Positions 2 to 24,478 of a DNA stretch of 32,000 nucleotides are shown here, in pieces; the first letter of the stretch is position 1; each line of letters starts with the position of its first letter. Below the pieces are notes generated by a model. It worked only from the letters and a program-made list of their open reading frames with translations, searched no databases and was not told the origin of the DNA. The position numbers and the translations under genes were made by a program. The stretch lies in contig JALDRA010000001.1 in assembly GCA_031316235.1 (NCBI GenBank), positions 3,300,001 through 3,332,000 on the forward strand, read 5' to 3'. Source of the stretch: Candidatus Scalindua sp. (lineage in GTDB: Bacteria; Planctomycetota; Brocadiia; Brocadiales; Scalinduaceae).

Positions 2-478
2 CAATCCGCAGTAGAGCGGTTATATTGCAGGGACATTATCATAGGCTGGAATGTGCAGGAGCGCAGAAAGGCTTTAGACAAAGTACTAAACAATAGTCGC
101 TTTCTGATCATGCCATGGGTAGAGGTAAAAAATATTGCATCACATATTTTATCACGAGTTGTCCGACAATTGCAGAAAGATTGGGTAGAGAAGTATGGCA
201 CCCGATTATTATTTCTGGAAACATTTATCGATCCATCAAAATTTTCAGGAACGTGTTATCAGGCAGCTAACTGGGTAAAAATTGGCAACACGAAGGGCTA
301 TCGTAAAAAGCAGAAAGGATTTATATACCATGGAAACAGCAAGGAGGTTTATTTTTATGTATTAGATCCACAAGGCAGACAAAAGATTAAACAAGACAAA
401 ACAGAACCATTACTTACCCGAAAGTATCTCCTTTCAAACAGACCTTACAGCAATCTGCCATTGGAAAGGAGAAGCAGT
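2..478 (+). CDS. DUF4338-family protein, C-terminal part (5' end outside the window). It runs without a stop codon into the transposase frame.
   Basis: The frame is open from nt 2. The translation NNSRFLIMPWVEVKNIASHILSRV...DWVEKYGTRLLFLETFIDPSKFSGTCYQAANWVKIGNTKGY matches my memory of the conserved DUF4338 (DruA-type) core. Confidence 0.55.
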
Positions 479-1877
479 ATGATAGTACGTCCCCCGGACT
501 GGAGTCCTGAAGTAGAACCCGGAGTTGAATTGAGTGCAAGCGATATCGGAAAGCTTGCAACAGAGTTGGAGAAGTATCACGCATTGTTTGAGGAGGGATT
601 CAGACGGAAAGAGCAGAAAGATTTGAGCTTGTGCTATTTGCAGGGTTTATTAAGTAAGCTTGATCGTAAATCGATAGAGCCAATAGCACTTCGACTCCGA
701 GGTAAAGATACAGTACGAAGCTTGCAACGGTTCATGGGAGAGTACAAGTGGGATGGAGAATTTATCGCTTCACGGCACAAAGAGGAACTCTCAAAACTAT
801 TGTCCGAAGCTGATGGAGTACTCAGTCTTGATAGTAGAGAAGTGGTGAAAAAAGGAAAGGAATCGGTGGGAGTCGCTCGTCAATATTGTGGCCGTCTTGG
901 TAAAATAGAAAATTGTCAGTCTGGAGTGTACGTGGCATATACGAGTACGAAGGGGTATGGATTGATAGACCGCCGGCTGTATATGCCTGAAAAGTGGTTT
1001 GACCCTGAGTATAAAGAGAGACGTGAAAGATGCAAAGTGCCTAAAAATTTGGTATTCAGGAAGAAACCGGAACTTGCCGTTGAGATGATTGCTGAATTGA
1101 GTACGGGTGGGCTGTTCCCATTTCGTTGGATAACGTGTGATAGTATATTTGGCAATAGCCCTGATTTTTTAGAAAATCTTCCTCCACAGGTTTTTTATCT
1201 AGCTGATATAGCAAAGAATCGGAAAGTGTTAGTGAGCACGCAAGATGGTGAAGCTTGCCGGAAGAGAGTTGAAAGAAAAGTATCCGATATAGCACAGGAC
1301 GGAAATGTAAAGTGGAAGCTGGCCCAACTTGCTGAAGGAGCAAAAGGGCCAATTTATGGATTTGTCGCTCGAACCAGGGTGTTTGCAGGCGATGACAGTA
1401 CAGCGGAGAATGAAAGATGGCTGTTTTTAAGAAAAGATCCTAAAACACATGAAATAAAGTACTGCCTCAGCAATGCTCCGGCAGAGACGGCACTTGAAGA
1501 AATGATACGTGTATGTGTATTACGCTGGCCTGTCGAGCAATCATTTCAAGAAGGCAAAAGCGAATTAGGCATGGCAGATTATGAACATCGTTCCTGGCCC
1601 GCCTGGCATAGGCATATGACGTTTGTTTTTTTGGCACAATTATTTTTGCTTAGAATACGCGGAGTATTAAAAAAAAACACCGGCTCTGACTTTACCCCAA
1701 GCTCGTATGCTGTTGGAGGCCGTTCTGCCGGTTATTCCACTTGATAAAAAATACGTAATTGAACTTATCAGGTACCACCAGAAAAGGAATTATAGTGCTT
1801 ATCGTTCTCATAGAAAAACAAAAATAAAGGAATTCAAAAAATTGCAGCGGAAGCTGAGAAAAAAAGTGTCGCTGTAG
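479..1877 (+). mobile_element. IS701-family DDE transposase gene with its frame broken at an A9 run
   Basis: From the Met at 479 the translation has FRRKEQKDLSLCYLQGLLSKLDRKSIEPIA, VGVARQYCGRLGKIENCQSGV and YEHRSWPAWHRHMTFVFLAQLFLL, typical of IS701/IS4-type transposases. The listed ORF ends at 1744. Shifting +1 after the A9 run (1669-1677) restores PALTLPQARMLLEAVLPVIPLDKKYVIELIRYHQKRNYSAYRSHRK up to TAG at 1875-1877. Confidence 0.75.
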
Positions 1878-2040
1878 TGATACTAAATTTACCAGTCAGT
1901 ACACTGGTAGAACAAGACTGAAAAAAAATGACATCTTGTTTAGTGAATTAAAAAATGAGTATAATCGCTAATTAAGGTGTGAATCAAATCGAATGTAGTC
2001 AAGAATGAATTTGACCCCTTTACTGCAAGTGAGACTTAAA

Positions 2041-2107
2041 GCGGCAGTTTCAGTAAATATTAAATCGCATGGTTATTGGTGGTTGGCTTCATGCGATTGT
2101 TTGGTGT
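2041..2107. repeat. Hairpin repeat H, copy 1 (AATCGCATG, 18-nt loop, CATGCGATT, plus shared flanks)
   Basis: A perfect 9-bp inverted repeat lies at 2063-2071 and 2090-2098. The roughly 65-nt block recurs at 11088-11151. It supplies the last codons and the stop of the 78-aa ORF. Confidence 0.6.
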
Positions 2108-2309
2108 TTTTATCAGAATTAAGTTTTATTTCAGAAACAATATCTTCAACCGTCATTCCTCTAAAAATTTTATCTTTCATTTCAACATAATTACCTTTTC
2201 CAATACTATACTGATTTATAAACCTTATTGTTCTACTAACTCCTAGCTCTTTAAAAAGTACTTCAAATGCTTCTTTATTTATTTCGTTTGCTGTTGTAAC
2301 TATACTCAT
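2073..2309 (-). CDS. Small protein translationally coupled to the PIN gene (possible antitoxin partner)
   Basis: 78-aa ORF whose start overlaps the PIN gene stop by 4 nt (ATGA). I do not recognise the family. Confidence 0.45.
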   Translation of the reverse strand: MSIVTTANEINKEAFEVLFKELGVSRTIRFINQYSIGKGNYVEMKDKIFRGMTVEDIVSEIKLNSDKNTKQSHEANHQ

Positions 2310-2746
2310 TTTTCATACTCCTCTATAAACTTTAATGGAGAAATAACTTTTGTTTTTAAATTTTTAATCTTTTGAGCTCGCTTAATAAACCTATCGTCGG
2401 TAGTACAGATATAATCTATTTTTTCTATATCTCCTATGGCAAGATGTAATGCATCAATAGCCTTTACGTTTTTCTTTTCAAATTCTTTTGCTCGATTAAT
2501 AATTTTATCAGATAAATTAATATTTTTTGAACTTAGTGATAGAACCTTCAAACCAAACGCTACTCTTTCTGGATCTGGTGTTTTGCTTAATTCCAATTCT
2601 ACTATCGAAGATGCGACCAGCTCAATTTTCTTTTCTTCAATTAATTCTATAATACTGATAACTGCTTCTGCATCTATCCTAATACGAATTTGTGACTTAT
2701 CGTCAAATGGTCTTTGGATACAACAATTATCAAAGTAAATTTTCAT
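2306..2746 (-). CDS. PIN-domain (VapC-like) ribonuclease toxin
   Basis: 146 aa. It has an N-terminal MKIYFDNCCI..PFDD and a C-terminal ICTTDDRFIKRA with acidic residues spaced as in the PIN fold. Confidence 0.7.
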   Translation of the reverse strand: MKIYFDNCCIQRPFDDKSQIRIRIDAEAVISIIELIEEKKIELVASSIVELELSKTPDPERVAFGLKVLSLSSKNINLSDKIINRAKEFEKKNVKAIDALHLAIGDIEKIDYICTTDDRFIKRAQKIKNLKTKVISPLKFIEEYEK

Positions 2747-3192
2747 AATATAACTTGTTTACATCAAGTGATTCATTAAGATGATGTACTTGCTTAAGAA
2801 GTATGTTAGCAAAAAGATATGTAGAAAGGAAACCAAAAAAATGTTGAAACTACATGTAAATTTGCGATTAGCATAATATCAATGGCGAAGCTTTATGAAT
2901 GTTGATAATTGGTTTATGAAGTGATATTTTAATGTTTTGTAATCTGGCAGACCGCAAGAGTACACGCAATAAAAAATGCAATACCAAAGGAGATTGGAAC
3001 AAAAAATAGAAAACTACGATTAGAGAGACTTCGTTCAAACCAGTTAAGTTTCATATCCTTGGGCTGATCTTTCCAGGTGTCCTTCATTTATTGAATATGA
3101 TAGATGGCAAATTGATGACGTTGATCGAGCTTCTGCAGAGCATTTCTGAGCTCGGGGAATCGGGGGACACAATACCTATTTAATTGAGCCGG

Positions 3193-3350
3193 GTAGGGCA
3201 GGCATCGCCTGCCATGTATTTGATTTATGCGGGTAATTTGTGCGGATGTGGGATGGATGAAACGGATAAAGACTGATTGTTTTATGGGGGACCATGCATG
3301 CCTTTCATCATAATGATGGATTTGATTTGGCAGGTGATGCCCTGCCCTAC
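3193..3350. repeat. Inverted-repeat pair flanking about 115 nt (MITE-like or IS-end remnant)
   Basis: GTAGGGCAGGCATCGCCTGCC (3193-3213) matches the reverse complement of GGCAGGTGATGCCCTGCCCTAC (3329-3350). Each arm is itself a small hairpin. Confidence 0.5.
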
Positions 3351-3494
3351 ATACAAATTACTCGGACAGGAAATATACATATATGCCAAAATGTCAAAGA
3401 TTTCTGACATTCGGTAGAACATTTTCTTTACGGTTGTCACCTGCAACCTAAAGGTATACGGACAAAACCGGAGAGCTGGGACTTAATGTTTAAT

Positions 3495-3803
3495 TTACAA
3501 CCACTCAACGTTTACGAGTTTTTCAACTTTTAGATATGCGAGAAGGAAGAAAGAGTTCAACAGGTACTTTTTCTTCATGCTTTTTATCCTCCCTTCTTTG
3601 TCATAATAATGCCCTGGTAAGAGAAGAGAGGTGCCATCTTTGAAGATTCCGCAAAAGATTTCTATCGGTTTCTCCGGAAGCGGCTCTATCACTGCATGGT
3701 TTTTTACAATCGTTAAACTTTCTGCCTTGATTTTATGCCAAGGATGACTCTTATTTTCTTTCGGTATCCTCGTAGTCGAATAACAATAGCTGACGTCCAT
3801 CAA
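3495..3803 (-). CDS. Hypothetical protein (weak call)
   Basis: Open frame only; no recognisable motif or clear RBS. Confidence 0.25.
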   Translation of the reverse strand: MMDVSYCYSTTRIPKENKSHPWHKIKAESLTIVKNHAVIEPLPEKPIEIFCGIFKDGTSLLLPGHYYDKEGRIKSMKKKYLLNSFFLLAYLKVEKLVNVEWL

Positions 3804-3832
3804 AACGTTCAGACTTTGGACTGAAACGATGG

Positions 3833-3944
3833 TATACTCATCTCATATTGGTTTTCGGATAAAATCCGAGATAAATTTGAGCGAGTATACCATCACCAAG
3901 ATCTGGTTTCCGGTAAAACCGGAAACCAGATCGGTTTTAGTATA
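3833..3944 (+). repeat. 112-nt MITE-like element, copy 1
   Basis: The ends are TATACT...AGTATA. Inside is a perfect 15-bp hairpin, GATCTGGTTTCCGGT-AAA-ACCGGAAACCAGATC, followed by GGTTTT. Other copies are at 5046-5157, 9319-9430 and 25594-25705. Confidence 0.8.
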
Positions 3945-4085
3945 AATGAGGTGGTTGATGTTCTCTTACTGACTTATGTTAAAATGTATTTAATGATGAG
4001 TATGTAACTGTTTTTTTGGAGTATGGTAGGATAAAAACTGTTACGGTATAGGTGATTGTCGAGCGTATCCTATGGGAAATACTTA

Positions 4086-4337
4086 TTAAATGTCTTTTCT
4101 GTGAAGAAACCTTACAAAAATGATGCTATTATCAATATGATCTATTCCGATGCGATAGTTACCTGATTTAATCCTGAAGTATGAATCATAGCCTTTAAGC
4201 TTTCTAAGATTCTTTATTTCTTTAATCTTAGTTGCGTCCTTAACTTCTTGAATTATGAGACTAAGACGATTTAATGTTTTTCTATCTTTGATTCTTTTTA
4301 GGTCCTTGGCAAAGCTTTCTTCGAAGAGAGTTTCCAT
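4086..4337 (-). CDS. RelE/ParE-family toxin
   Basis: 83 aa with LRKLKGYDSYFRIKSGNYRIGIDHIDNSIIFVRFLHRKDI, a typical RelE/StbE C-terminal pattern. Confidence 0.8.
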   Translation of the reverse strand: METLFEESFAKDLKRIKDRKTLNRLSLIIQEVKDATKIKEIKNLRKLKGYDSYFRIKSGNYRIGIDHIDNSIIFVRFLHRKDI

Positions 4338-4540
4338 TATTTTCTTTCGAGTAGCTTTGTAATTTGATCTTCTTCTACAAATTTATTCTTTCGTCCTTTT
4401 TTAATTGCTTTACCAAGACCTACTTCCTCTATGGCTTCTGTGACAAGTTCATACAATTCTTCTTTATTTTCATGTAACATCTCAATTAAACTGTCTTTTA
4501 TTAATGATTTAAGCTTATCGTCTTCTCTTTTTGTCTTCAT
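4337..4540 (-). CDS. Antitoxin partner of the RelE/ParE toxin
   Basis: Starting at Met32 of the listed ORF (cat at 4538-4540) gives a 67-aa charged helical protein. Its stop overlaps the toxin start. Confidence 0.65.
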   Translation of the reverse strand: MKTKREDDKLKSLIKDSLIEMLHENKEELYELVTEAIEEVGLGKAIKKGRKNKFVEEDQITKLLERK

Positions 4541-5045
4541 TTCACTATCCCCTATTTTACTTTTATCTTGGGAGCAATTATAACAAAATAATTGCTCCCA
4601 AGATAAAAGTAAATACTGAGTCATGAGGATCACCTGTTAAGATGAAAACTTTAATACATTATCCACACCCTGATTTTTAAAGTTTTTAGTTACGGTTTAC
4701 TATTCCGCTCCAGTCACCCATCCATTCTTCACTACATGATGGGAATTAAAGTGCACTCTTAATTACGGTACGACCACCAAGAATAGAATATTCAGGAGCG
4801 TGATAATTCTCCAGGGCGCTAACTTGCAAAAACTATGGGCTAACGGAAAGTGAAACACTGAAAGTTGAAATATGGTCAGTTTAAACTGTTTTCAGTGAAA
4901 TCAGTCTTCCGTGGGTAAGCTGGATATCGTACCTACCAGTTTTTTTGTACAAAAAAAGCAGGAAAAAGTCGGAATTTGCTTGACAGGTTTTTCGTCTAAA
5001 ATTGCTAGGAATTTTTGTTACCAGAGGTTTAGAATATTTACGCAG

Positions 5046-13888: not shown

Positions 13889-14119
13889 TCATGTTTGTGT
13901 AATTAATCTCGAATGTGCAATCTCTTTGGCATCAGTAGGCCGGACTTGGTTGGCTAGTAATGTGACCACCGCTAACATTGAACCATCGGTAGCTGTAAAT
14001 TCAATCTCATAACCAGCCCCTTTTTTATGAATCAACACGATAGTTCCAATATCTCCGGCTAATAGCCCGTGCTCAGGAACATCGGTTGTAAGAATAACAT
14101 CATCCAATTCTTTAATCAT
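13889..14119 (-). CDS. DUF4926-family protein
   Basis: MIKELDDVILTTDVPEHGLLAGDIGTIVLIHKKGAGYEIEFTATDG fits the DUF4926 pattern. It overlaps the upstream gene by 4 nt. Confidence 0.6.
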   Translation of the reverse strand: MIKELDDVILTTDVPEHGLLAGDIGTIVLIHKKGAGYEIEFTATDGSMLAVVTLLANQVRPTDAKEIAHSRLITQT

Positions 14120-14463
14120 TTTTTCTCCTTTTTTAATGGATGGGCGGTAACGAATCTAGGAGAGTCTCCATCATCATCTATAAACCACACCGTGCGTACA
14201 TTCAATAAAGAACCATCGGGAGATTTCATGAATCCGTCGATAATGTATTTAGTGCCAAATATTGTACGTTTAATACCAGAAATCTCATTTTCTTTTGCGT
14301 GGTGAATCAATGATTTTACTACTTCCTCCCATTTTTCTCTAACAAATCCGAATGACATAAAAAATTTGGCTTTTGCCTTTCCAGCTCTGCTCGAACTTGA
14401 GAGCAGATAGTCCGTAATCTTTTCACTCGGAATTTCAGCATTTTGAACATTTGGTAATTTCAT
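14116..14463 (-). CDS. DUF6883-like protein, partner of DUF4926
   Basis: From Met35: MKLPNVQNAEIPSEKITDYLLSSSSRAGKAKAKFFMSFGFV... (KxxDYLLxxxHxxGxxKAxFF-type motif). Confidence 0.55.
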   Translation of the reverse strand: MKLPNVQNAEIPSEKITDYLLSSSSRAGKAKAKFFMSFGFVREKWEEVVKSLIHHAKENEISGIKRTIFGTKYIIDGFMKSPDGSLLNVRTVWFIDDDGDSPRFVTAHPLKKEKK

Positions 14464-14696
14464 TAGATTCTCATAGTTCTTCCGATATGAAATTATAAGG
14501 ATGTGAAAAGTGAAGTTGCAAGTTAAAAATGTGCTAAATAATTTTTTAGAGAAATAGGGACTCAAGACTATAGGGTTCTTTCAGATTATATCATACTTTA
14601 ATGCCTCTATTATCCCCACATCTTTTTTCACCACTAATCAAAGCGATCCAACAATTCGATCCAGATGCTGGTTAGGTGAACAGTCCAATTCTCAAT

Positions 14697-15032
14697 CTAT
14701 TCCTTGTGCACTATGATGCCGCAGTATTCATTCTCGTTTATTCCCTCGTGAAACCTTCCACGCAACCATCGTTCCGTTCCATCACGTGCGGTGTTGTATA
14801 TGGCGCCGATACCATGTTCTCCACCATCAATGTGAATTTTTACTCTGCATCTCATACACGTAAGCCACAGCCATGTATCGGTTAGATGAGTTTCCATTGC
14901 GCCACTACCACAAGCAGCATGGTAGATGCGAAGTTTTTCGGGTGCAAGATTTTCCTCGTTTTGCATGGCCGCCACTTTGATCACGAAAGGTGGTCTTGAA
15001 TCTTTGCCAATGAGCCAATCAAAAAGTCCCAT
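14697..15032 (-). CDS. Hypothetical 111-aa protein (cassette ORF)
   Basis: AGGAGG lies 8 nt upstream of the ATG. Local GC is higher than the neighbours. It has Cys/His clusters (HAACGSG, CMRCRVKIH). Family not recognised. Confidence 0.5.
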   Translation of the reverse strand: MGLFDWLIGKDSRPPFVIKVAAMQNEENLAPEKLRIYHAACGSGAMETHLTDTWLWLTCMRCRVKIHIDGGEHGIGAIYNTARDGTERWLRGRFHEGINENEYCGIIVHKE

Positions 15033-15047
15033 GTCTTAATCCTCCTC

Positions 15048-15119
15048 GCCTAACGACCAAGCTGTGCGGCGCAAACGAAGCGCAGCGTAGTTTGCGTCCG
15101 AACGAGCGCCTTGTTAGCC
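15048..15119 (-). other. Intact attC-like recombination site
   Basis: The minus strand reads GGCTAAC-aaggcgctcgttcggacgcaaac-(13 nt)-gtttgcgccgcacagcttggtc-GTTAGGC, a 72-nt imperfect palindrome with unpaired bases. The TAA stop of the upstream ORF lies inside the first box. Confidence 0.6.
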
Positions 15120-16016
15120 ATTTGGACCATCATATTTTTGGTCAAATATCATAAATATTCTGCTGTTAACTCTTTCGATCCAATCAAGGATGTTCTGCAT
15201 ATTCTCGTCATAACAGTCTATTCGTTTTAACCAGAGCCTGTATGATTCATTGCAAAATCTGAGTGTAGGCGTGATATATCTTACATCAGCCTCATGATAA
15301 AAGGGATATACAGAGAATGTTGCATCTTCATTCTTTTGAAGGCACCAATCCATAGATTCGTTCCATGAGCCGTGTATGGATTCAGACATCATCCCATAGG
15401 TATATTTATACAAATCCTCATCTGTAATTTCCTTGAATATTTCGAAGAAGGTCTTCCCTTGAAGCCTCCATCGATTTTTCTTTTGTATTTTAAAATCATC
15501 TTCTGTGAAGCCTTCCAACTCCATTTTTTCCTGAACCGATTTTAGTAGGCGCTTCCCTGCCTTTGTCTCAAAAAACCGAGAGCCCTCTTTTAGTTCGCGC
15601 AATATTCTTAATCGGTCTTTATATGAACATTTTCTGTAATCTTCTATGACAGCAGTACCACTTAGCAGTAAATATTCTGCTGTTATTGCTGCTTCGATCA
15701 GTGGCCGTTCTAAGATGCTAATGATTTCAGCGTTATTTTTTTCGTAGTAACCAACGATTTCTTTAAGTAGCTTCCATATCCTAGTTAACAACCCCAAAAT
15801 AGGAGCATCTTCTAGATCGAAACCAGTAGGGTTTCGCTCAATATTACGTATCCTTGTAATACAGTCATAAATCTCCGCCACATCCTTTACGAAAGTACCA
15901 GTAAACTTATTGATATCGTCGAGTGATCTCAAGCTATCTGAGACATAGGCTTCATCATAACTACTGATAATTGTTTCTATTTCGTCCATGCTTGCGCTTA
16001 TTTGTATGGCTAACAT
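15114..16016 (-). CDS. Hypothetical 300-aa all-helical protein (possibly DUF5677-like)
   Basis: Long clean ORF. Contains MSESIHGSWNESMDW and repeated helical segments. The family assignment is only a faint recollection. Confidence 0.55.
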   Translation of the reverse strand: MLAIQISASMDEIETIISSYDEAYVSDSLRSLDDINKFTGTFVKDVAEIYDCITRIRNIERNPTGFDLEDAPILGLLTRIWKLLKEIVGYYEKNNAEIISILERPLIEAAITAEYLLLSGTAVIEDYRKCSYKDRLRILRELKEGSRFFETKAGKRLLKSVQEKMELEGFTEDDFKIQKKNRWRLQGKTFFEIFKEITDEDLYKYTYGMMSESIHGSWNESMDWCLQKNEDATFSVYPFYHEADVRYITPTLRFCNESYRLWLKRIDCYDENMQNILDWIERVNSRIFMIFDQKYDGPNG

Positions 16017-16248
16017 TGTTGATAAGTAGAAAATTTTCTATCTATTGCCTTTATAAAACTGAAATTATTCTATTTATTTATATATACAACCAAGTAAACA
16101 TGGAAAATATTTAATCGAATTTTCCACGTTTCCATGATGGGAAGCTATATCATGGAAATAAATAAGAAATTCAGACCAGATTCTTTTTTACAATGTTTTC
16201 AACTATATGCTATGAAAGCAACTACCTCACTTTTGGCGGTCAGCTGGT

Positions 16249-16512
16249 TTAATTGTGAGATGATTGAATTTCACTGTATTGCTCTACAGGGATAATTAAT
16301 TCTTTTTTTACTTTTTTCCCATGGGAGTGAATAGAAATAAATTCATTTTCGATTTGTTTTAATACACTTCCTTTAAAATACTGTTCTCCACAATATTCAC
16401 ATTGTTCACATGGAACATCATTAACTACAAGAAAATTATCATGATGTTTATAAGTATATTGAACGTGAGTATTTTTGAGATTTTTATTTCCACAAAAATG
16501 ACAAACTTTCAT
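16249..16512 (-). CDS. Orphan YgiT-type zinc-finger protein
   Basis: MKVCHFCGN...VPCEQCEYCGEQYF has the same two-CxxC layout as 12095-12346. No toxin gene is adjacent. Confidence 0.6.
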   Translation of the reverse strand: MKVCHFCGNKNLKNTHVQYTYKHHDNFLVVNDVPCEQCEYCGEQYFKGSVLKQIENEFISIHSHGKKVKKELIIPVEQYSEIQSSHN

Positions 16513-16550: not shown

Positions 16551-16719
16551 AAAAAATCCAGTGGTTAAACTCTAACCGTCTGGTTGAACGAAAACTGCCC
16601 GGATACAAGGCGCGTAAAAATTTTGTAACCGGAGCGTACTCAAGTACGTGAGGATTACAAAATTTTTACAGCAACGCAGTAGGTGGGTAGTTTTCGTTCA
16701 ACCAGATTGGAAATTTTTT
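16551..16719. repeat. Long composite hairpin element L, copy 1
   Basis: TCTGGTTGAACGAAAACT pairs with AGTTTTCGTTCAACCAGA (18 bp). An inner pair is GTAAAAATTTTGTAA with TTACAAAATTTTTAC (15 bp). The right arm encodes the last recN codons. Confidence 0.7.
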
Positions 16720-18401
16720 GCGTCAGTTATCATCTCCTCCGCCTGCTTTCTTGTCACATCACTTTTCTCATCACCTCTTATCATCTCCGCAATTTCCTCA
16801 ATACGTGTTTTCGTTGAAAGTACTTCGATTTCTATCTTTGTACTGTTTTTCTTTGTCGATTTGTTTACCTTCAAATGCTGATCAGCATAGCTTGCGATCT
16901 GGGGGAGATGGGTAATACAGATGACCTGGTGGGTCTGTGATACGAGTTTTAATTTTTCTCCGATAGTTTTCCCCATTCTGCCTCCAATATTCGCATCGAT
17001 CTCGTCAAATACCAGTACCGGAGTCCTGTCTGCCATGGCTAAATGCCTCTTCAGGGCGAGCATTATCCTGGAAGTTTCTCCTCCTGAGGCAATTTTTCTG
17101 AGAGGTTTTACTTCTTCACCCGGGCCGGAAGAGAACATGAATTCAACCCGGTCAAACCCTGAACTGCGAACCTCTTCCAGATTGAGATGGTTGTGATTGG
17201 TTTCCTTGATGGTTGTGATGGCAATTTCAAACTTTCCATTACGGATGCCGAGGTCTGCCAACTCTTTTTTGATCAGCGAAGATAGCCTGGTGCCTGCCTT
17301 TTTCCTCAACTGGGTAAGTTCCGTACCGTGAGCAGTGACTGATTTTTTTAACTGAGCCAGCTCTTTTTCACTGGTATCAAGGGATTCGCTTTCAGCTAAA
17401 AGATGTTCGAGCTTTTTTCTTGATTCCTCACCGTATAAGAGTATATCTTCAATTGTTGCTCCATATCTGTTGGTGAGTCTTCGGATGACCTCGATGCGCT
17501 CCTCTATTTCCCGTAACCGTTCAGGATCTGACTCATATTTTTCACTGTCTGCTCTTAACGAATTTGCAACATCTTCCAGCTGGTAAATGGTTTGATTGCA
17601 TACCTCCAGGGAATTCTCAAATCCCTTGTCAATCTCCCTGGCTTTGGACAATTCGTCTGTAACCTCTCTTAATCTACCGACTATTGAATCATCAGACTCA
17701 TACAGGCTGTTGAGGCAGTGTAATAGGGTGCTCTGTATCTTCTCGGAGTTTACGAGAATGCAGCGATCATCTTCCAGGGTATTCAGTTCAGCGGGTTTGA
17801 GATTGGCATTCTCGATCTCTTCAATCTCAAACTGGTAGAGGTCGATCTGTTTCTTTCTCTCTTCCTGATGCTCTTTGAGTGAAGAGAGATGTCTCTCCTT
17901 TTCTCTGGACAGAGAGTAAAGTTCGGAAAATTTTACACGGTGGTCGGCTGATTTTCCAAAACTGTCAAGAATAGCAAGCTGATTGTTCGGATCTGTGAGT
18001 GTCTCGTGCTCTTGCTGTCCATGGATATTGACCAGGAGCTCACCGATCTCCCGCAAGAGGGATACCGTAATGGGGTGGTTGTTAAGCGTACACTTGTTAC
18101 GTCCCTTCTGATCCAGGCGCCGCTGCATGATGATCTCATCATCCATGCAATCGACATGTTTCTGGATCTCTTCCCGGATATGTCCGTTTTCAATAAGAAA
18201 TACACCGCTCACGGCAGCCTCCTTCTTATCCGTCTTGATCACGTCACTTGATGTCCTGCTTCCCAGAAGGAAATTGAGAGCCCCGATGACCAATGATTTC
18301 CCGACACCCGTTGTACCTGTTACGATATTGAGCCCTTTGTCGAACTGGACTGTAATGGTATCGATGAGGGCAAAATTTGATATGTAGAGCTCGCTTAACA
18401 T
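16698..18401 (-). CDS. recN: DNA repair protein RecN
   Basis: MLSELYISNFALID...NIVTGTTGVGKS Walker A, long coiled-coil middle, C-terminal ASGGETSRIMLAL...LVFDEIDANIGG. Confidence 0.9.
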   Translation of the reverse strand: MLSELYISNFALIDTITVQFDKGLNIVTGTTGVGKSLVIGALNFLLGSRTSSDVIKTDKKEAAVSGVFLIENGHIREEIQKHVDCMDDEIIMQRRLDQKGRNKCTLNNHPITVSLLREIGELLVNIHGQQEHETLTDPNNQLAILDSFGKSADHRVKFSELYSLSREKERHLSSLKEHQEERKKQIDLYQFEIEEIENANLKPAELNTLEDDRCILVNSEKIQSTLLHCLNSLYESDDSIVGRLREVTDELSKAREIDKGFENSLEVCNQTIYQLEDVANSLRADSEKYESDPERLREIEERIEVIRRLTNRYGATIEDILLYGEESRKKLEHLLAESESLDTSEKELAQLKKSVTAHGTELTQLRKKAGTRLSSLIKKELADLGIRNGKFEIAITTIKETNHNHLNLEEVRSSGFDRVEFMFSSGPGEEVKPLRKIASGGETSRIMLALKRHLAMADRTPVLVFDEIDANIGGRMGKTIGEKLKLVSQTHQVICITHLPQIASYADQHLKVNKSTKKNSTKIEIEVLSTKTRIEEIAEMIRGDEKSDVTRKQAEEMITDAKNFQSG

Positions 18402-18446: not shown

Positions 18447-20018
18447 TTACTGTTCATAACTGTTCTTTCTCTTCCAGCCTAACAGTAAATCTGTGTACTC
18501 TCCCTGTTTCCAGAATTCATATGCATTGTGTGTAATGCCCAGATTTTTTTCAATCTCTGCAAAACGCCTGAGTTTGCTCGCCTCGTCCTTAATCTGAACG
18601 AGCCAGCGGTCCTGCGCCCATTCCCAGTAACCATAAACCGGGCTGTAGTACGCATTGTGGGACTTGGCCTTAAAGATGCCGTCAACGATATCGACCAGCA
18701 TTTCGTACGTCAATCTCTCCACATTGGAAACATTATATTTTCTCATCTCCCCCTTTCCGGGCAGGAGACTGAAGATGTTGTGGCCGGTAGAATCCGGAGC
18801 AAGGTCGATGGGCATGGGGTCTATCAGTTCTTCATTGTAGAGATCCATGACAATGGACATTGCCTCACGGTATTTCGCAAAGCTCAGCTTGATTCCTTCA
18901 TCCATTGCCTCCAGCTGGTCCTTTGCGAATCTTGGTGAATGACAATCCCTGCAGACCCTGATCCATGACTCTCGTTTTTCCCTGTATCGATCAGCGCCTC
19001 TATCTACAAGAGAGGTACCCATGTAGGTATAAACGGTTGAGGTATTAATAACATTGTGATCTCCTTCCGGCATATGGCAGTATGCGCACGTTGGAACGGG
19101 GTAATTTTCTGCATCAAGAGGCTTTGTCCAATCCCATGTCTGGCCTTCTCCCTGATAGACCATGCCGTGATACGACTGCATGTACATCTCATATTCGTAC
19201 TGCTCAGGGCCGGAATGGCATACTGCACAACTTGTGGGCTTCCGGGCCTCAGCGGCTGAAAATCTGTGCCGTGTGTGGCAGCCATCACATCGGTTCTCAA
19301 CTGCGTGACAACCGAGGCAGGCAACCGTCTCTTCCGCAGGTTTCTCTATCTGGCATCCCAGTTCGATCAACTCATAATGGTAAGCGTGTGCGTGTGATCC
19401 TTGACCGCCTTCCCGGTGTCCCCTTAACTGCTTTTCATGACATTCACCACAAAGATCGTATGATGGCATCATGAGCTTTTTGTGGTTCTTTCCATGACAC
19501 CTGTCACATCCGACAACCTCTTTTCCACTCGATGGTGTTCCGTGTTTACTCGCTTTCCATTGTGCAACTATTCCGGGGCTCTCCACCCGGTGACAGTTTA
19601 CACACTGCGTATTGGTGTATTCTCCATCAACAGTACTGCCCGGATGGAAGGTGTCGCTGTTGTAATAGTACGTTGGATCGTACCAGCGTATTACCGGGAG
19701 AAAATTATAGAGGTGTCCGAATTTTCCCTTGCCGGGAAAGAGGTTTTTCGGGCCGGTGTAGTAGCTTGAAAGACCGCCGGCGTGATATACGTCGCCTGAA
19801 TCATCAGGGCCAACTCTTTCTCCCAGCAGTGCTGCCATGTCCTGACGGAAGTTCGAATTCTCCACAATACTCAGTTGTCCGGGGGAGGGATTAACCGTGG
19901 ATTTTTCCAGTTGCTGAAGATACTCGATCTCCTGTGCTGAAGAATCTGCTGGAAAAGGAAATGTGACGTATACAAAAAGAGAGATAAGCAGGAAATGTTT
20001 TATGACAGGGTATTTCAT
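18447..20018 (-). CDS. Octahaem hydroxylamine-oxidoreductase-like cytochrome c
   Basis: Eight CXXCH motifs (CVNCH, CDRCH, CGECH, CLGCH, CDGCH, CAVCH, CAYCH, CRDCH). Signal-like MKYPVIKHFLLISLFVYVTFPFPA begins at the Met at 20018. The ORF is open up to 20093. Confidence 0.85.
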   Translation of the reverse strand: MKYPVIKHFLLISLFVYVTFPFPADSSAQEIEYLQQLEKSTVNPSPGQLSIVENSNFRQDMAALLGERVGPDDSGDVYHAGGLSSYYTGPKNLFPGKGKFGHLYNFLPVIRWYDPTYYYNSDTFHPGSTVDGEYTNTQCVNCHRVESPGIVAQWKASKHGTPSSGKEVVGCDRCHGKNHKKLMMPSYDLCGECHEKQLRGHREGGQGSHAHAYHYELIELGCQIEKPAEETVACLGCHAVENRCDGCHTRHRFSAAEARKPTSCAVCHSGPEQYEYEMYMQSYHGMVYQGEGQTWDWTKPLDAENYPVPTCAYCHMPEGDHNVINTSTVYTYMGTSLVDRGADRYREKRESWIRVCRDCHSPRFAKDQLEAMDEGIKLSFAKYREAMSIVMDLYNEELIDPMPIDLAPDSTGHNIFSLLPGKGEMRKYNVSNVERLTYEMLVDIVDGIFKAKSHNAYYSPVYGYWEWAQDRWLVQIKDEASKLRRFAEIEKNLGITHNAYEFWKQGEYTDLLLGWKRKNSYEQ

Positions 20019-20193
20019 AGGAATCACCATTTTACTGTTCTGCCGCACCTTCCGGGTGTTTACGGAGAAGGTTTCACTATTCTTTTTATACAAATTTATA
20101 AAGACTTCATTTTATAAATTGGAAGTTGTAATTTGTCTGTAGTTTATGATTTTAGATTTGTAATTTAATCCATAGAATTTTCAGCATTTGATA

Positions 20194-20238
20194 CACTTTG
20201 TCTCCCAGTACTGCATGTTCGGGCTGGGAGACAAAGTG
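20194..20238 (-). promoter_or_regulatory. Perfect 15-bp stem hairpin between the membrane-fusion gene and the HAO-like gene
   Basis: CACTTTGTCTCCCAG-(15 nt)-CTGGGAGACAAAGTG, 10 nt after the stop at 20249. No U-tract follows on the coding strand. Confidence 0.5.
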
Positions 20239-20248
20239 CATCAATAGG

Positions 20249-22666
20249 TTACTTTTTTTTGACCTGTATTGCTTCGTTCAATTCTTTCAGTAATTGATCG
20301 ATATCTGTTGGTTTGATCTTAACTGCCTGAGTAATGTTTACGGCCCGTGCAAGTGTTCTTCGGAGAATAGGATTTTTAAGCTGTGTAAATCCTTTGCTTA
20401 CGAAAATATCTATCGCCTGTGGGAATTGGGTGATAAGCTGGTGTACATTCGTAGATTCGGTAACAGTAGTAATCCTCTCTTTTACTTCATCTTCTTCCGG
20501 TCCTCTTGTTCCCGCATTTAAGGTTTTCCATATATTAATGCCGAATAATAAGATAGCGAAACTTTCGATAAAACCGCTTACACCCATAATCCAGTAAAAA
20601 TGGGTTGAACCTGTATGGACGGCCAGGGGTTGGAAGATTACCCGCAATATACTCCCGATGTTAATAAGGACAAATGTTATGATAAGCGAGGTGTAGCTGT
20701 ACAGTTTGATACCCTTGCTGATGGGAATAATCCGTGATGCATAACCAAAGATCAGCATGGTAATGAATCCAACCGTAACGGCGTGCCTGTACGAACCCAT
20801 TATTGCATGTGAAACAGGGGAACCGGTAGCCGTCTCATAGAAGGTGAAGATCAGCATTGCTATTTCAGCAGTTACCAGCCACAGAATCCCCGCCCAGACA
20901 AATTTTTCGTATCCCTTCTCTATGTCCATTCCGCTGTAATCAACTTCCGGTTTTGTCAGGAGGTTCAGGGTGTAGAAGAACAACAAGATGGACAGAAATT
21001 GAAGACATCCGGAGGTGAAATAGATAGAGTTCAGGGTATAATATACCGGCAGATTTATGTCTAAAAAGTATGCCTTTAAGGGTTCTGAAAAGGCCCTGAG
21101 CAGCACAGAAAAGTTCAAGGTCAGCATAATGAGGACAAGGAGTTTGGGATTTGGAGCCCGTAAACCGAGAAATACCGGTAACGTTCTGGTGAGAACACCG
21201 AAGATCACAAATGTTATGAATCCCATTACCTGTATATGGCGAAGGGGATAAACAAGGGCATGCGGCATGACTGTCATGTCTTCCTTTATCATGTAGACGG
21301 TAATGCCCGAGAAGAGCAGGGCCTGCACGAGAAACCAGAGGTAACCGGAGACGATAAATCCTTCATAAGGTTCAATGTCCTGTTTTTCTCCCGACAGGAT
21401 CGTCTTAAAGGCTACAATCAGGAACAGGATAACGGCCAGAACCTCCAGCAGGCATCCGATTAAGATCAGGATTTTAAAGAAAAATGGATCTGAAACAGGG
21501 AGAAGGGTCCGGAATACAAATACGAGAAAAATACCGGTGATCATGAAGACGAAAGAGAGATTTGCCATCTTCCCGCTATAGAGGCGCGTGGCATAAAATC
21601 TGGGGAGAATGAAGTACGACACACCCATTATGAATAGACCGCACCAGCCGAATATCTGGGTGTGGCCATGGGTCTCTATCAGCACCCTTGAGACACCGTA
21701 GAGAGAGTGCTGCAGTCCCATCTGGAAGAGCAGTACAGCGCCGTAGACACAGCCGGTTGTGAGCGCGATGACAATAGCCGCCTTAATGAATTTTTCATGG
21801 ATATTTTCAAATGCGGTTGCGGCGTTATCTTCAGGAATCTCAGGGGCTTCTGTCTTACCTTGTATAACATCATTGAGTTCCTTTATTAAATTATCACTGT
21901 CAACGTTATGAACCTTGGCAAAGAAGTATACGGCTTCCTCCGGGCCGTATTCTCCCCCGCACTCAAGTAAACCATATTTCGAAAAGACACCTTTTGTCTG
22001 CGGGTGGCACATTATAATGTCTTTTACCGTTGTATGCCCCGTTATTTCCTGTTTGCCTTCAGATTCGGGAGAGGCAGGAGAATCATTCTTTTCTCCTTTT
22101 ACGGTTTTTTCCTGCGTACTGCTCTCTTCTGAAGCGGGTTCCTGAGGAAAAGAGTTATTTAATACCCTGATAAGGTTGTCTACGTCGACGTTACACGCAA
22201 TAGCAGTCTTTTCAATACTCTGTACACCACCGCAGCAGGTATCAACACCGTATTTATTGAATATTTCTGTAGTGTGCGGATATTTTTCCGTAACGTCATT
22301 AACAATCATATCCCTGGTAATTCTGTTTTGCCCAGTACCGGGTTTGACATCTTTTTTTACCGTCCGCCTCTCTTCTTGAGTGGATACTTTCTGAGTGGTT
22401 TCCTGCGGAAGGGACTCGTTCAACACTCTGATAAGGTTGTCTACGTCGACATTACAGGCAATGGCGGTTTTTTCGATACTCTGTACCCCGCCACAGCAGG
22501 TATCAACACCGTATTTATTGAATATTTCTGTGGTTTGCGGATATTTTTCCGTAACGTCATTAACAATCATATCCCTGGTAATCTTGTTGTGTCCCATACG
22601 TATAATGCCCCTTTCGCTTTCCATCAAAGAATGGAAAAGAGAGTATTTTCCCACACATGTTTTCAC
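20249..22666 (-). CDS. Fusion protein: 3 x ScdA_N/RIC-N-like domains, a 12-TM His-rich (NnrS-like?) core, and a C-terminal DUF1858-like domain
   Basis: Two copies of ITRDMIVNDVTEKYP.TTEIFNKYGVDTCCGGVQSIEKTAIACNVDVDNLIRVLN, as in the YtfE N-terminus (DYCCGG). A third, diverged copy has LECGGEYG. Twelve hydrophobic helices carry THGHTQIFGW, LRHIQVMGF and YRHAVTVGF. The C-terminus is VHQLITQFPQAIDIFVSKGF...LLKELNEAI. The start may be the Met at 22597. Confidence 0.7.
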   Translation of the reverse strand: MKTCVGKYSLFHSLMESERGIIRMGHNKITRDMIVNDVTEKYPQTTEIFNKYGVDTCCGGVQSIEKTAIACNVDVDNLIRVLNESLPQETTQKVSTQEERRTVKKDVKPGTGQNRITRDMIVNDVTEKYPHTTEIFNKYGVDTCCGGVQSIEKTAIACNVDVDNLIRVLNNSFPQEPASEESSTQEKTVKGEKNDSPASPESEGKQEITGHTTVKDIIMCHPQTKGVFSKYGLLECGGEYGPEEAVYFFAKVHNVDSDNLIKELNDVIQGKTEAPEIPEDNAATAFENIHEKFIKAAIVIALTTGCVYGAVLLFQMGLQHSLYGVSRVLIETHGHTQIFGWCGLFIMGVSYFILPRFYATRLYSGKMANLSFVFMITGIFLVFVFRTLLPVSDPFFFKILILIGCLLEVLAVILFLIVAFKTILSGEKQDIEPYEGFIVSGYLWFLVQALLFSGITVYMIKEDMTVMPHALVYPLRHIQVMGFITFVIFGVLTRTLPVFLGLRAPNPKLLVLIMLTLNFSVLLRAFSEPLKAYFLDINLPVYYTLNSIYFTSGCLQFLSILLFFYTLNLLTKPEVDYSGMDIEKGYEKFVWAGILWLVTAEIAMLIFTFYETATGSPVSHAIMGSYRHAVTVGFITMLIFGYASRIIPISKGIKLYSYTSLIITFVLINIGSILRVIFQPLAVHTGSTHFYWIMGVSGFIESFAILLFGINIWKTLNAGTRGPEEDEVKERITTVTESTNVHQLITQFPQAIDIFVSKGFTQLKNPILRRTLARAVNITQAVKIKPTDIDQLLKELNEAIQVKKK

Positions 22667-22938
22667 CTGATTCCGGTTTCGGTAATTCGATTCCTGATCA
22701 GGTGTTAAAACAGATGCATCCTGAGAAGTTTCGATCTTTAATAAATTTTGTTTATTGACGCAGGATGGTAAATTTTATAGTTCTCATGTTTTTCATCATG
22801 CGTATCTCGCAGTACAGAGTTTACCTCGTATTCAAGTCTATATATCATAAAGGAAAATGCATGTCAATTCCATTCTGAAAAGATGTTTTATAAAAAAAAC
22901 TTGCAAAATAATTGGCTATGTGATTTATTGACGGTACT

Positions 22939-23466
22939 TTGGAGAATGGATTACTTATTGTATATACGGGTAACGGGAAAGGGAAAACAACGGCGGCAAT
23001 CGGGTCTGCAGTCAGGGCCGTTGGTCAGGGCTGCAGAGTATTGATGCTTCAATTCATAAAAGGGTCGTGGAAGTATGGTGAATTGGAGTCAGCGAAAAGG
23101 CTGCAGCCCGATTTTGAAATCCTGCCTCTCGGGAAGGGATTTGTTGGTGCGAATTCAAAACTGGATGAAAAAGAGGTTCAGGAAAATATCTCAAAATCAT
23201 GGTCCAGAGCAAAAGATGCAATCCTTTCAGACAGGTACGACATGGTCATCCTTGATGAGATAAATTATGTAATTGGCTATGGTCTCATTCCTGTTGAAGA
23301 GGTAGTAACAGTGCTTGAGAAGAGGCCGAAGAGATTACATGTGATTATGACGGGAAGGAATGTGCATGAAAGAGTAGTTGAAAAAGCAGATTTAGTTACT
23401 GAAATGAGAGAGATCAAACACCCGTATTCCAGAGGTATTAAGGCACAAAAGGGAATAGAATTCTAA
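22939..23466 (+). CDS. cobO: Cob(I)yrinic acid a,c-diamide adenosyltransferase
   Basis: GLLIVYTGNGKGKTTAAIGSAVRAVGQGCRVLMLQFIKGSWKYGE and DMVILDEINY. Confidence 0.85.
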   Translation: MENGLLIVYTGNGKGKTTAAIGSAVRAVGQGCRVLMLQFIKGSWKYGELESAKRLQPDFEILPLGKGFVGANSKLDEKEVQENISKSWSRAKDAILSDRYDMVILDEINYVIGYGLIPVEEVVTVLEKRPKRLHVIMTGRNVHERVVEKADLVTEMREIKHPYSRGIKAQKGIEF

Positions 23467-23746: not shown

Positions 23747-24478
23747 ATGGCAGAAGTTACATTAAAAGTAATTTTGTTGAATCACACAAAGAGGCCGGAA
23801 GAAACGATAGCCCACGCTGCAAAACTGTGTTATAGTCCCGCTTCAATAGAACAACTCAAAAATACGATAGAAAAGTCAGATAATGAGAAATTTGTTGAAA
23901 GACTCCTTCGATTAGGGCATCTTTCTCCTCTGGAACATGCGGTGTTTACGTTTGGCGTTGAGGGCATATCAAGGGCATGCTCCCATCAGCTTGTCAGACA
24001 CAGGATCGCCTCTTATTCTCAACAGAGCCAGCGGTATGTCGGTGAACGCCGCAAAAAAGAGCATGAGATCTTTGATTTCGTCATACCTCCGAGCATTGAG
24101 GAGTCGGGAAAGAAGGAATGGTTTATCGGCAAGATGCAGGAGATCCAGAACTGGTATGATGAACTTGTTGATGGGCTGGGAGATTCTGGAGAGAAATCGA
24201 ATGAGGATGCGCGTTTTATACTTCCAAATGCAGCAGAAACCAAGATCATTGTTACGATGAATGCGAGGGAACTTATCCATTTCTTCAGTGTGCGGTGCTG
24301 TGAACGGGCGCAATGGGAAATTAGAGGCCTCGCTACTGAAATGTTGAGATTATCAAGAGAGGTTTTGCCGGGAGTCTTTTCACCGTCAGGTCCGAATTGT
24401 GTAAAAGGGCCGTGTACAGAGGGTAAAATGACGTGCGGGAACATTGAAGAAGTGAGAGAGAAGTTTCGTAACTTATAA
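23747..24478 (+). CDS. thyX: FAD-dependent thymidylate synthase ThyX
   Basis: Contains the ThyX signature RHRIASYSQQSQRY. Confidence 0.9.
   Translation: MAEVTLKVILLNHTKRPEETIAHAAKLCYSPASIEQLKNTIEKSDNEKFVERLLRLGHLSPLEHAVFTFGVEGISRACSHQLVRHRIASYSQQSQRYVGERRKKEHEIFDFVIPPSIEESGKKEWFIGKMQEIQNWYDELVDGLGDSGEKSNEDARFILPNAAETKIIVTMNARELIHFFSVRCCERAQWEIRGLATEMLRLSREVLPGVFSPSGPNCVKGPCTEGKMTCGNIEEVREKFRNL

Follow-up and report, generated by a model that had tools for sequence, protein, structure and literature searches.

An oxidase-fold, NnrS-like membrane protein with fused ScdA_N/DUF1858 domains in anammox bacteria, and its probable link to nitrosative stress

Within a 32,000-nucleotide stretch of a Candidatus Scalindua sp. 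genome (assembly GCA_031316235.1, contig JALDRA010000001.1, positions 3,300,001 to 3,332,000; hereafter the window), we analyzed an uncharacterized gene, gene A, that encodes a 12-helix membrane protein carrying ScdA_N and DUF1858 domains and is followed on the same strand by an HAO paralogue, gene B. Modeling and alignment showed that the membrane core of gene A has the fold of haem-copper oxidoreductase (HCO) subunit I, that it keeps the histidine pair of the low-spin haem, and that the ligands of the binuclear centre have been lost. In our preferred reading, to which we give a probability of about 0.55, gene A encodes a membrane protein of the NnrS type with a bis-His haem b; the thiol-bearing DUF1858/ScdA_N domains on its cytoplasmic side would connect it with iron and nitric oxide (NO) chemistry there, and it would give general protection against nitrosative stress.

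The gene A open reading frame (ORF) and the HAO-like ORF, placed 155 nt downstream of it on the same strand by an earlier note made from the sequence alone, were both confirmed on the minus strand (Table 1). The true start of gene A is probably the ATG at 22597 (M24), giving 782 aa, because homologues begin with MGHNK or MGQNK and because a GAAAGGGG ribosome-binding site about 10 nt 5′ of this ATG is kept in nearly all Scalindua loci; the top of the homologue list consists entirely of Scalindua-type anammox bacteria. The protein is built from two DTCCGG ScdA_N domains, a single-Cys DUF1858 domain, 12 transmembrane (TM) helices and a Cys-free C-terminal DUF1858 domain. Pfam matched DUF1858 at 117 bits in four stretches, ScdA_N at 89.7 bits in three stretches and NnrS at 31.4 bits against a cut-off of 28 (residues 592–716, profile positions 247–367 of 371), with COX1 at 34.2 bits falling just below its gathering cut-off of 34.8 (residues 297–521). 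Pfam, NCBIfam and the AlphaFold2 model thus reproduce the architecture described in the earlier note, with its start corrected here. As that note had supposed, no characterized protein combining ScdA_N/DUF1858 domains with a 12-TM core was found in the literature searched, nor did anything relevant on DUF1858, DUF542, ScdA_N or NnrS in anammox bacteria turn up there; under these family names, no gene A entry was found among the expression data in the supplements of the S. profunda and K. stuttgartiensis studies.

For the core, we fed AlphaFold2 with a 104-sequence alignment and obtained a model with a pLDDT of 87.4 and a pTM of 0.74, in which the expected 12 TM helices were present. Foldseek searches of the PDB with this model returned at the top solely HCO subunit I chains, namely cbb3 CcoN (E = 2e-9, target TM-score 0.73) and NorB (TM-score 0.66–0.71), then the aa3, bo3 and ba3 oxidases, and CcoN was also reached by sequence with the family profile (E = 5e-4). 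The likeness to HCO subunit I proteins (cbb3 CcoN, cNOR NorB and qNOR) extends from the 12-TM pseudo-threefold fold, with TM-scores up to 0.73, to the low-spin haem histidines of TM2 and TM10. In a co-linear alignment of the family profile with CcoN, H333 falls on the haem b ligand of TM2, H477 on the CuB histidine of TM6, and H628 on the other low-spin haem ligand, which is the second of the two histidines in the TM10 motif HVHAGALGW. Equivalents of H333 and H628 in oxidases and NO reductases sandwich a low-spin haem near the outer membrane face; in our model the outer ends of TM2, TM6 and TM10 carry the three histidine motifs, and the predicted topology places the H333/H628 sites near the outer face, as in oxidases. 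Three histidine motifs had been put forward as conserved, and two of them are: H333 of THGHTQIFGW and H628 of YRHAVTVGF are each present in 104/104 family members, with H335 in 94/104, but H477 of LRHIQ occurs in only 46/104.

The remaining ligands set gene A apart from HCO subunit I. Tyr626 stands in place of the proximal His of the high-spin haem, which is the first His of the TM10 H-x-H in CcoN, and this column holds Y in 83 of the 104 members, with H not among its five commonest residues. The TM7 His-His pair of CuB/FeB is absent from the gene A core in the alignment to CcoN, the TM6 His is variable, the Pfam COX1 match is sub-threshold, and genes for subunit II/III, CcoO or NorC partners do not accompany gene A. 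This pattern, with H333 and H628 invariant against the changes at Tyr626, TM7 and H477, indicates that the low-spin bis-His site has been kept and the binuclear centre lost, so that the protein most likely binds a single bis-His haem b. Given the missing high-spin-haem and CuB ligands, it would not be a catalytic NO reductase or oxidase. The loops contain seven Lys/Arg residues on the inner side and none on the outer, which puts both termini in the cytoplasm, and all four ScdA_N/DUF1858 domains are accordingly predicted to face that compartment.

We then compared the core with NnrS, the family of which the conserved histidines had reminded the earlier reader. A tblastn search of plasmids with the core-only relative P0101 gave no match, and canonical nnrS and norB were taken from the nir-nor region of S. 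meliloti pSymA by an ORF scan with our own hidden Markov model and Pfam (nnrS, 380 bits). An NnrS profile of 15 sequences, built from collected NnrS homologues, aligned to the gene A family profile in hhalign co-linearly over TM1–12 (357 columns, E = 2e-4, probability 47%), pairing H333/H335 with the histidines of the NnrS motif WHAHEMLFGF (H67/H69) and H628 with NnrS H312, all of which are invariant in the NnrS set. Against individual NnrS or NorB sequences hhalign matched only locally, and these comparisons were dropped in favor of the profile–profile one; the single-sequence NorB match was out of register (TM2–4 against TM10–12) because of the internal pseudo-symmetry of the fold. P0101 itself matches Pfam NnrS at profile positions 20–371 (35 bits), which is full length, and a model of canonical NnrS also has cbb3 CcoN as its best match (query TM-score 0.65). 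Together with the passed Pfam cut-off, these results bear out the NnrS resemblance, and the co-linear alignment with paired histidines and the shared CcoN-like fold lead us to place gene A in the NnrS superfamily as a divergent branch with fused domains; the superfamily as a whole appears oxidase-like in fold.

Gene A shares with NnrS (PF05940/COG3213; V. cholerae VC2330, R. sphaeroides and S. meliloti) the 12 TM helices and HCO-like fold, an invariant TM2 H-x-H-x-x-x-F-G-(F/W) motif, an invariant TM10 His and, in several phyla, adjacency to NO-responsive Crp/Fnr regulators and nor genes. It differs in sequence, at about 16% identity and with a Pfam match limited to TM10–12; in build, since NnrS consists of the core alone, at about 400 aa, and the gene A family carries two to four fused cytoplasmic DUF1858/ScdA_N domains; and in the lack of an NO-related gene context in anammox genomes. 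During this comparison we came upon an unannotated multi-TM ORF of 452 aa without a Pfam family, lying between nnrS and norB on S. meliloti pSymA (L081:18232-19590, minus strand). It matches the gene A core profile at 49 bits (E = 3e-15), better than canonical NnrS does, and by sequence it may add a third, so far undescribed NnrS/HCO-like paralogue to this classical denitrification island.

The soluble domains tell which parts of the protein are constant. Across 104 diverse members, these are the core together with the membrane-proximal domain and the DUF1858 domain at the C-terminus; the DTCCGG domain is found in 60. Domain 1 has ScdA 9r7j as its best PDB match; domain 3 passes NCBIfam TIGR03980, a model named "hybrid-cluster-protein-associated redox disulfide domain," at 82.7 bits against a cut-off of 44.95; and domain 4 reaches PDB 2fi0 at E = 1.6e-15 with the family profile. 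In the translation, the cysteines are the DTCCGG pairs of domains 1 and 2 and a lone Cys (LLECGG) in domain 3. Domain 4 has none, so the Cys-free C-terminal DUF1858 domain proposed earlier stands. C236 of domain 3 is kept in 98 of the 100 sequences that have this column, and the C236-G-G-x-x-G-P-x-E...H253 motif is kept in at least 98%.

By contrast with these constant parts, the number of DTCCGG domains varies, from none in Brocadiaceae orthologues through one in most Scalindua homologues (about 695 aa) to two here, and two CCGG motifs were found only in the window gene and its three closest relatives (L001, L002 and L005). The triple ScdA_N arrangement with two DTCCGG motifs is real in the window protein, as first described, but it is a lineage-specific state. 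The two copies have a period of 87 aa, and an in-register comparison gave 84% nucleotide identity over 72 codons, with only 31% in the linker. Tandem Repeats Finder detected no repeat on 21800–22800, missing the 261-nt duplication because the linker is too diverged, which is why the in-register comparison was used. The second DTCCGG domain is, on this comparison, a recent, local, subclade-specific duplication. The homologue P0001, which comes from a read-archive assembly, is 100% identical to the window protein but has one DTCCGG copy fewer, which could be an assembly collapse or a real polymorphism. Over 22124–22600 (minus strand), the DTCCGG domains also resemble each other more within a genome (window, P0002 and P0004) than across genomes, a likeness that suggests concerted evolution by gene conversion or independent recent duplications.

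Comparison with proteins bearing the same soluble domains places gene A outside both known groups. Like RIC/YtfE/ScdA, it has ScdA_N domains with vicinal cysteines (the CCGG of domains 1 and 2), which in the PDB come closest to S. aureus ScdA residues 3–59, but they are joined to a membrane haem-type protein instead of a hemerythrin-like di-iron domain. Pfam gave no match to the latter domain in gene A, and the NCBIfam RIC/ScdA/YtfE equivalogs scored 62–106 bits, far under their cut-offs of 205–259; lacking a di-iron domain, the gene A product does not belong to the RIC proteins. Domains 3 and 4 match stand-alone DUF1858/TIGR03980 proteins (PDB 2fi0, 2k53 and 2k5e; Bradyrhizobium bsl7085), from which gene A differs in having such domains fused at both ends of the core, with one Cys and no disulfide pair in domain 3 and no Cys in domain 4. 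The stand-alone gene bsl7085 belongs to the NnrR denitrification regulon and is among the most NnrR-dependent Bradyrhizobium genes (PMC6710368).

Table 1. Features of the window, in window coordinates
Feature	Coordinates	Strand	Description
Gene A, maximal ORF	20249..22666	-	805 aa from GTG; from the ORF list; homologues at E = 0
Domain 1, aa 29-88	22403..22582	-	ScdA_N/DUF1858 fold, DTCCGG; Pfam ScdA_N; extra copy from a subclade-specific tandem duplication
Domain 2, aa 116-175	22142..22321	-	ScdA_N with DTCCGG; optional module, present in 60/104 members
Domain 3, aa 208-268	21863..22045	-	Membrane-proximal DUF1858/TIGR03980; C236-G-G-x-x-G-P-x-E...H253
12-TM core, aa 289-720	20507..21802	-	HCO subunit I fold, NnrS-like (AlphaFold2 model, Foldseek, HMM alignment, hhalign)
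H333 and H335, TM2	codons 21668-21670 and 21662-21664	-	
H477, TM6	codon 21236-21238	-	
H628, TM10	codon 20783-20785	-	
Domain 4, aa 736-805	20252..20461	-	Cys-free DUF1858, motif GF..L.NP.LR.T.A; Pfam best stretch 736-793
Hairpin	20188..20244	-	Perfect 21-bp stem, 6 nt after the gene A stop; no U-tract
Gene B	18447..20093	-	548 aa; octahaem HAO paralogue, HOX (kustc1061) type; eight CxxCH; signal peptide
recN	16698..18401	-	Pfam SMC_N; directly after gene A in many other Scalindua genomes
cobO (cob(I)alamin adenosyltransferase-like gene)	22939..23466	+	Divergent from gene A
thyX	23747-24478		With the cobO-like gene, conserved Scalindua upstream synteny block (cluster c1 in 24 loci, cluster c3 in 22)

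A genome scan found gene A in the anammox genera Scalindua, Brocadia, Jettenia, Kuenenia, Loosdrechtia and Wunengus and, outside anammox, in Acidobacteriota, Verrucomicrobiota, Armatimonadota, Chloroflexota and Poribacteria. In an exhaustive profile search (E <= 1e-30), the family comprised 808 clusters at 50% identity, with core-only forms (about 420–480 aa) among them. The Scalindua gene order is cluster c5, thyX, cobO (divergent) and gene A, followed by recN or other genes, and in Brocadiaceae the neighbors are parA, trkA and trkH upstream and pgsA, rimO and ftsK downstream on the opposite strand. Set among such housekeeping genes, gene A looks monocistronic in anammox genomes. The picture outside anammox is richer: within four positions of gene A, 15 non-anammox loci held six Crp/Fnr regulators, four qNOR, three hemerythrin and two ScdA_N (RIC-type) genes, as well as five radical-SAM genes, three cytochromes c, two YwiC genes and two cysteine desulfurases. 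In 9 of the 80 fetched gene A loci, all outside anammox genera, the gene immediately upstream and on the same strand encodes a Crp/Fnr regulator, and neither such a gene nor an operator was found by gene A in Scalindua loci. The Crp/Fnr, qNOR and RIC neighbors in non-anammox phyla support a role of the family in NO stress, and the enrichment of these loci for Crp/Fnr, qNOR and RIC/hemerythrin genes upholds the NO link that had been drawn from domain names.

Several members of the family deserve separate mention. P0098 (711 aa) is without a DTCCGG domain and has a C-terminal DUF59 (PF01883, SufT/MIP18-like iron–sulfur (Fe-S) assembly), tying the family to Fe-S biogenesis. Two copies of the fusion gene in differing contexts occur in a Brocadia metagenome-assembled genome (MAG; L044 and L048) and in a Verrucomicrobia MAG (L077 and L078), and both of the Verrucomicrobia copies adjoin qNOR.

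Two non-coding elements flank gene A. The hairpin after its stop codon folds at -35.4 kcal/mol (z = -6.9), was not found as a dispersed repeat within the window, and is absent from the three same-order relatives and from other Scalindua, which rules out a conserved terminator or attenuator. On the other side, the intergenic region between gene A and cobO holds a promoter-like block at 22862–22880 (minus strand), reading TTTCAGAATGGAATTGACA in the window and TTTTAGAATGGATTTA as a consensus, in 14 of 21 Scalindua loci.

Gene B is an octahaem HAO paralogue, as the earlier note had recognized, with eight CxxCH motifs and a HOX as its best PDB match: 4n4j, the Kuenenia hydroxylamine oxidase kustc1061, at E = 2e-149, then 6t5e, a Brocadia HOX-like protein, at E = 3e-146. 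Its start is probably the ATG at 20030, which would widen the gap to gene A to about 218 nt. Y487 aligns with the cross-link (P460) tyrosine in the NQTYGNG motif of the Kuenenia HOX, which we take to be Tyr451 of kustc1061. Because this tyrosine is kept, oxidative chemistry is predicted for gene B; in the Brocadia fulgida HOX-like protein, the cross-link tyrosine is Tyr449 (bioRxiv 10.64898/2026.07.28.741245). Gene B thus resembles the Kuenenia HOX (kustc1061, 4n4j) in its eight haem c motifs, its end-to-end alignment and its cross-link tyrosine, and by sequence it is presumably a HOX-type, oxidative paralogue. Hydrazine dehydrogenase (NF052343) was ruled out, with 415.9 bits against an equivalog cut-off of 900. 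Unlike the hzsA-linked HAO copy of S. profunda (PMC3655542), gene B is a paralogue at a variable genomic position.

To count adjacency, we searched the 80 fetched gene A loci with gene B by tblastn and added the window, making 81. The two genes are adjacent in 4/81 loci, namely the window and its three closest relatives, with gene B lying between gene A and recN, and among the 81 loci there was no gene B beside gene A in other Scalindua, Brocadia, Jettenia, Kuenenia or Loosdrechtia. Conversely, neither gene A nor recN was found near gene B relatives (64–89% identical) in any of 61 metagenome loci, where the neighbors are tdh/kbl, a CBS-domain gene and focA, or gcvT/gcvH. The low adjacency on both counts makes the pairing a subclade-specific rearrangement, and we infer that gene B encodes an independent, exported hydroxylamine-oxidizing enzyme and that, in a single Scalinduaceae subclade, this gene landed between gene A and recN. 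In loci L084, L086 and L089–L093, the HAO relative is followed on the same strand by a CBS-domain gene and a FocA/NirC-type formate/nitrite channel, with divergent tdh/kbl before it; HAO, CBS and nitrite channel may form a conserved unit in Scalindua-like contigs.

Elsewhere in the window, an ORF running off the left end (2–1744, plus strand) has an N-terminal region resembling DruA (Druantia) as well as a DDE_5 transposase domain, and the adjoining 2001–5000 has a very low GC content of 0.30–0.34; the two may belong to a mobile or defence island. Small genes cluster 3′ of recN (14116–16512, minus strand), among them DUF6883, DUF5677 and a zinc-ribbon-like ORF of 87 aa; this cluster lies outside the conserved Scalindua synteny and looks like an accessory or toxin–antitoxin-type islet.

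How gene A might work can be sketched from these observations. NO is an obligate and toxic intermediate of anammox, and gene A would be a housekeeping, singly transcribed gene in these bacteria. NnrS does not remove NO but protects the iron pool against being turned into dinitrosyl-iron complexes (PMC9246220). In the manner of V. cholerae NnrS, the gene A protein would guard the iron and Fe-S pool of the cell from NO, with the membrane haem serving as a redox or NO-binding centre and the cytoplasmic thiol domains capturing or handing over NO-derived adducts or reducing equivalents. Around the core, the membrane-proximal CGG..GP.E..H domain and the C-terminal domain are constant, and the DTCCGG domains are optional additions.

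The earlier note saw in gene A a membrane partner for the HAO-like enzyme, and in its fullest form this would make gene A a dedicated redox partner of gene B, with electrons released when hydroxylamine is oxidized on the outer or anammoxosome side passing to the haem b near that face and from there to quinone or to the cytoplasmic thiol domains. The two genes do stand adjacent on one strand in the window and its three closest relatives, separated in L002 by only about 15 nt; the putative haem would be close to the outer face, on the side where an exported HAO is expected; and the HAO insertion and the extra DTCCGG domain mark the same subclade. Yet the pairing is not conserved in relatives on either count (4/81 and 0/61), the family also occurs widely in phyla that have no anammox metabolism, the spacing ranges from about 15 to 385 nt, and in the window genome a strong hairpin follows gene A. 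Neither a quinone site nor a cytochrome c docking domain is evident in gene A, and its ScdA_N/DUF1858 domains are predicted to lie in the cytoplasm, whereas the HAO, with its signal peptide, is exported. We regard this attractive idea as improbable and, being unsupported, correct it here. A new catalytic HCO, reducing NO or O2, is highly improbable: the subunit I fold, the borderline COX1 match, the name borne by relative P0197 and the qNOR genes nearby in other phyla speak for it, but the TM7 His-His pair is missing, Tyr626 replaces the proximal His, the TM6 His is present in only 44%, and COX1 stays below threshold.

A transmembrane sensor or redox relay, in which the haem senses NO, O2 or redox state and the DUF1858/ScdA_N domains signal to regulators, RIC or Fe-S assembly, is conceivable but unlikely. 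It would account for a putatively non-catalytic haem site and for a core always paired with two DUF1858 domains on the cytoplasmic face, and it can draw on the DUF59 fusion and on the Crp/Fnr gene directly upstream, on the same strand, in 9/80 loci (non-anammox). That adjacent gene, however, equally fits gene A as a regulated target, as nnrS is for NnrR; no output domain (kinase, GGDEF or HTH) is recognizable, and DUF1858 as a signaling module is without experimental precedent. Handling of metal or haem, by copper or iron delivery or haem trafficking and not in an NO response, seems to us doubtful at best. Papers citing the work on R. sphaeroides NnrS report both haem and copper in that protein, and the conserved Cys and His of the soluble domains and the Fe-S-related neighbors and fusions would suit such a role, but gene A has no transporter-like fold or metal-transport motifs, its best structural matches are all respiratory HCO subunits, and its neighborhood signal is mostly NO-related genes and not metal homeostasis.

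Nitrosative-stress protection by an NnrS-type haem protein thus remains our preferred reading, and several points weigh against it. Haem binding is read from alignment and fold, and the sequence link to canonical NnrS is remote (the 47% probability and E = 2e-4 given above), with a Pfam match that spans only the last third of the core. To say that gene A works like NnrS is in any case a weak mechanistic statement. The idea of a thiol relay is speculative, because the ScdA N-terminal domain is non-catalytic and its redox-active cysteines are dispensable for ScdA activity (PMC12412097). In anammox genomes, the housekeeping neighbors (cobO, thyX, recN, parA, trkAH, pgsA, rimO and ftsK) give no functional hint, and no FNR/CRP (FNR/NsrR-type) palindromes or dyads were conserved upstream of gene A in 21 Scalindua loci. 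In L002, the gap of about 15 nt makes co-transcription of genes A and B possible. We accordingly state the structural classification and the catalytic-centre loss as results; that the protein binds haem, what its cysteines do and which function it serves in the cell are what we infer.

NnrS and RIC/YtfE are widespread nitrosative-stress families with poorly understood mechanisms. The fusion of an NnrS-like core to RIC-type N-terminal domains in a family of 808 clusters argues that the two act in one process. A bolder extension, which we offer as a distinctly unlikely speculation, treats these proteins as a "Rosetta stone" fusion: ScdA_N/DUF1858 domains would serve NnrS-type haem proteins as modules for docking or relay in the cytoplasm; a single pathway would unite NnrS with RIC/YtfE and the stand-alone DUF1858 proteins, and would move electrons or adducts of NO (S-nitrosothiols or dinitrosyl-iron, for instance) between a cytoplasmic Cys motif and the bis-His haem b of the membrane; and in anammox bacteria the protein would be a universal guard against NO leaking from the anammoxosome, reinforced here by a second DTCCGG domain beside an NO-producing HOX. 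For the NnrS superfamily, our models suggest a cytochrome-oxidase-fold protein that retains solely the low-spin haem site. Present in every anammox genus examined, gene A is a candidate manager of free NO in these bacteria.

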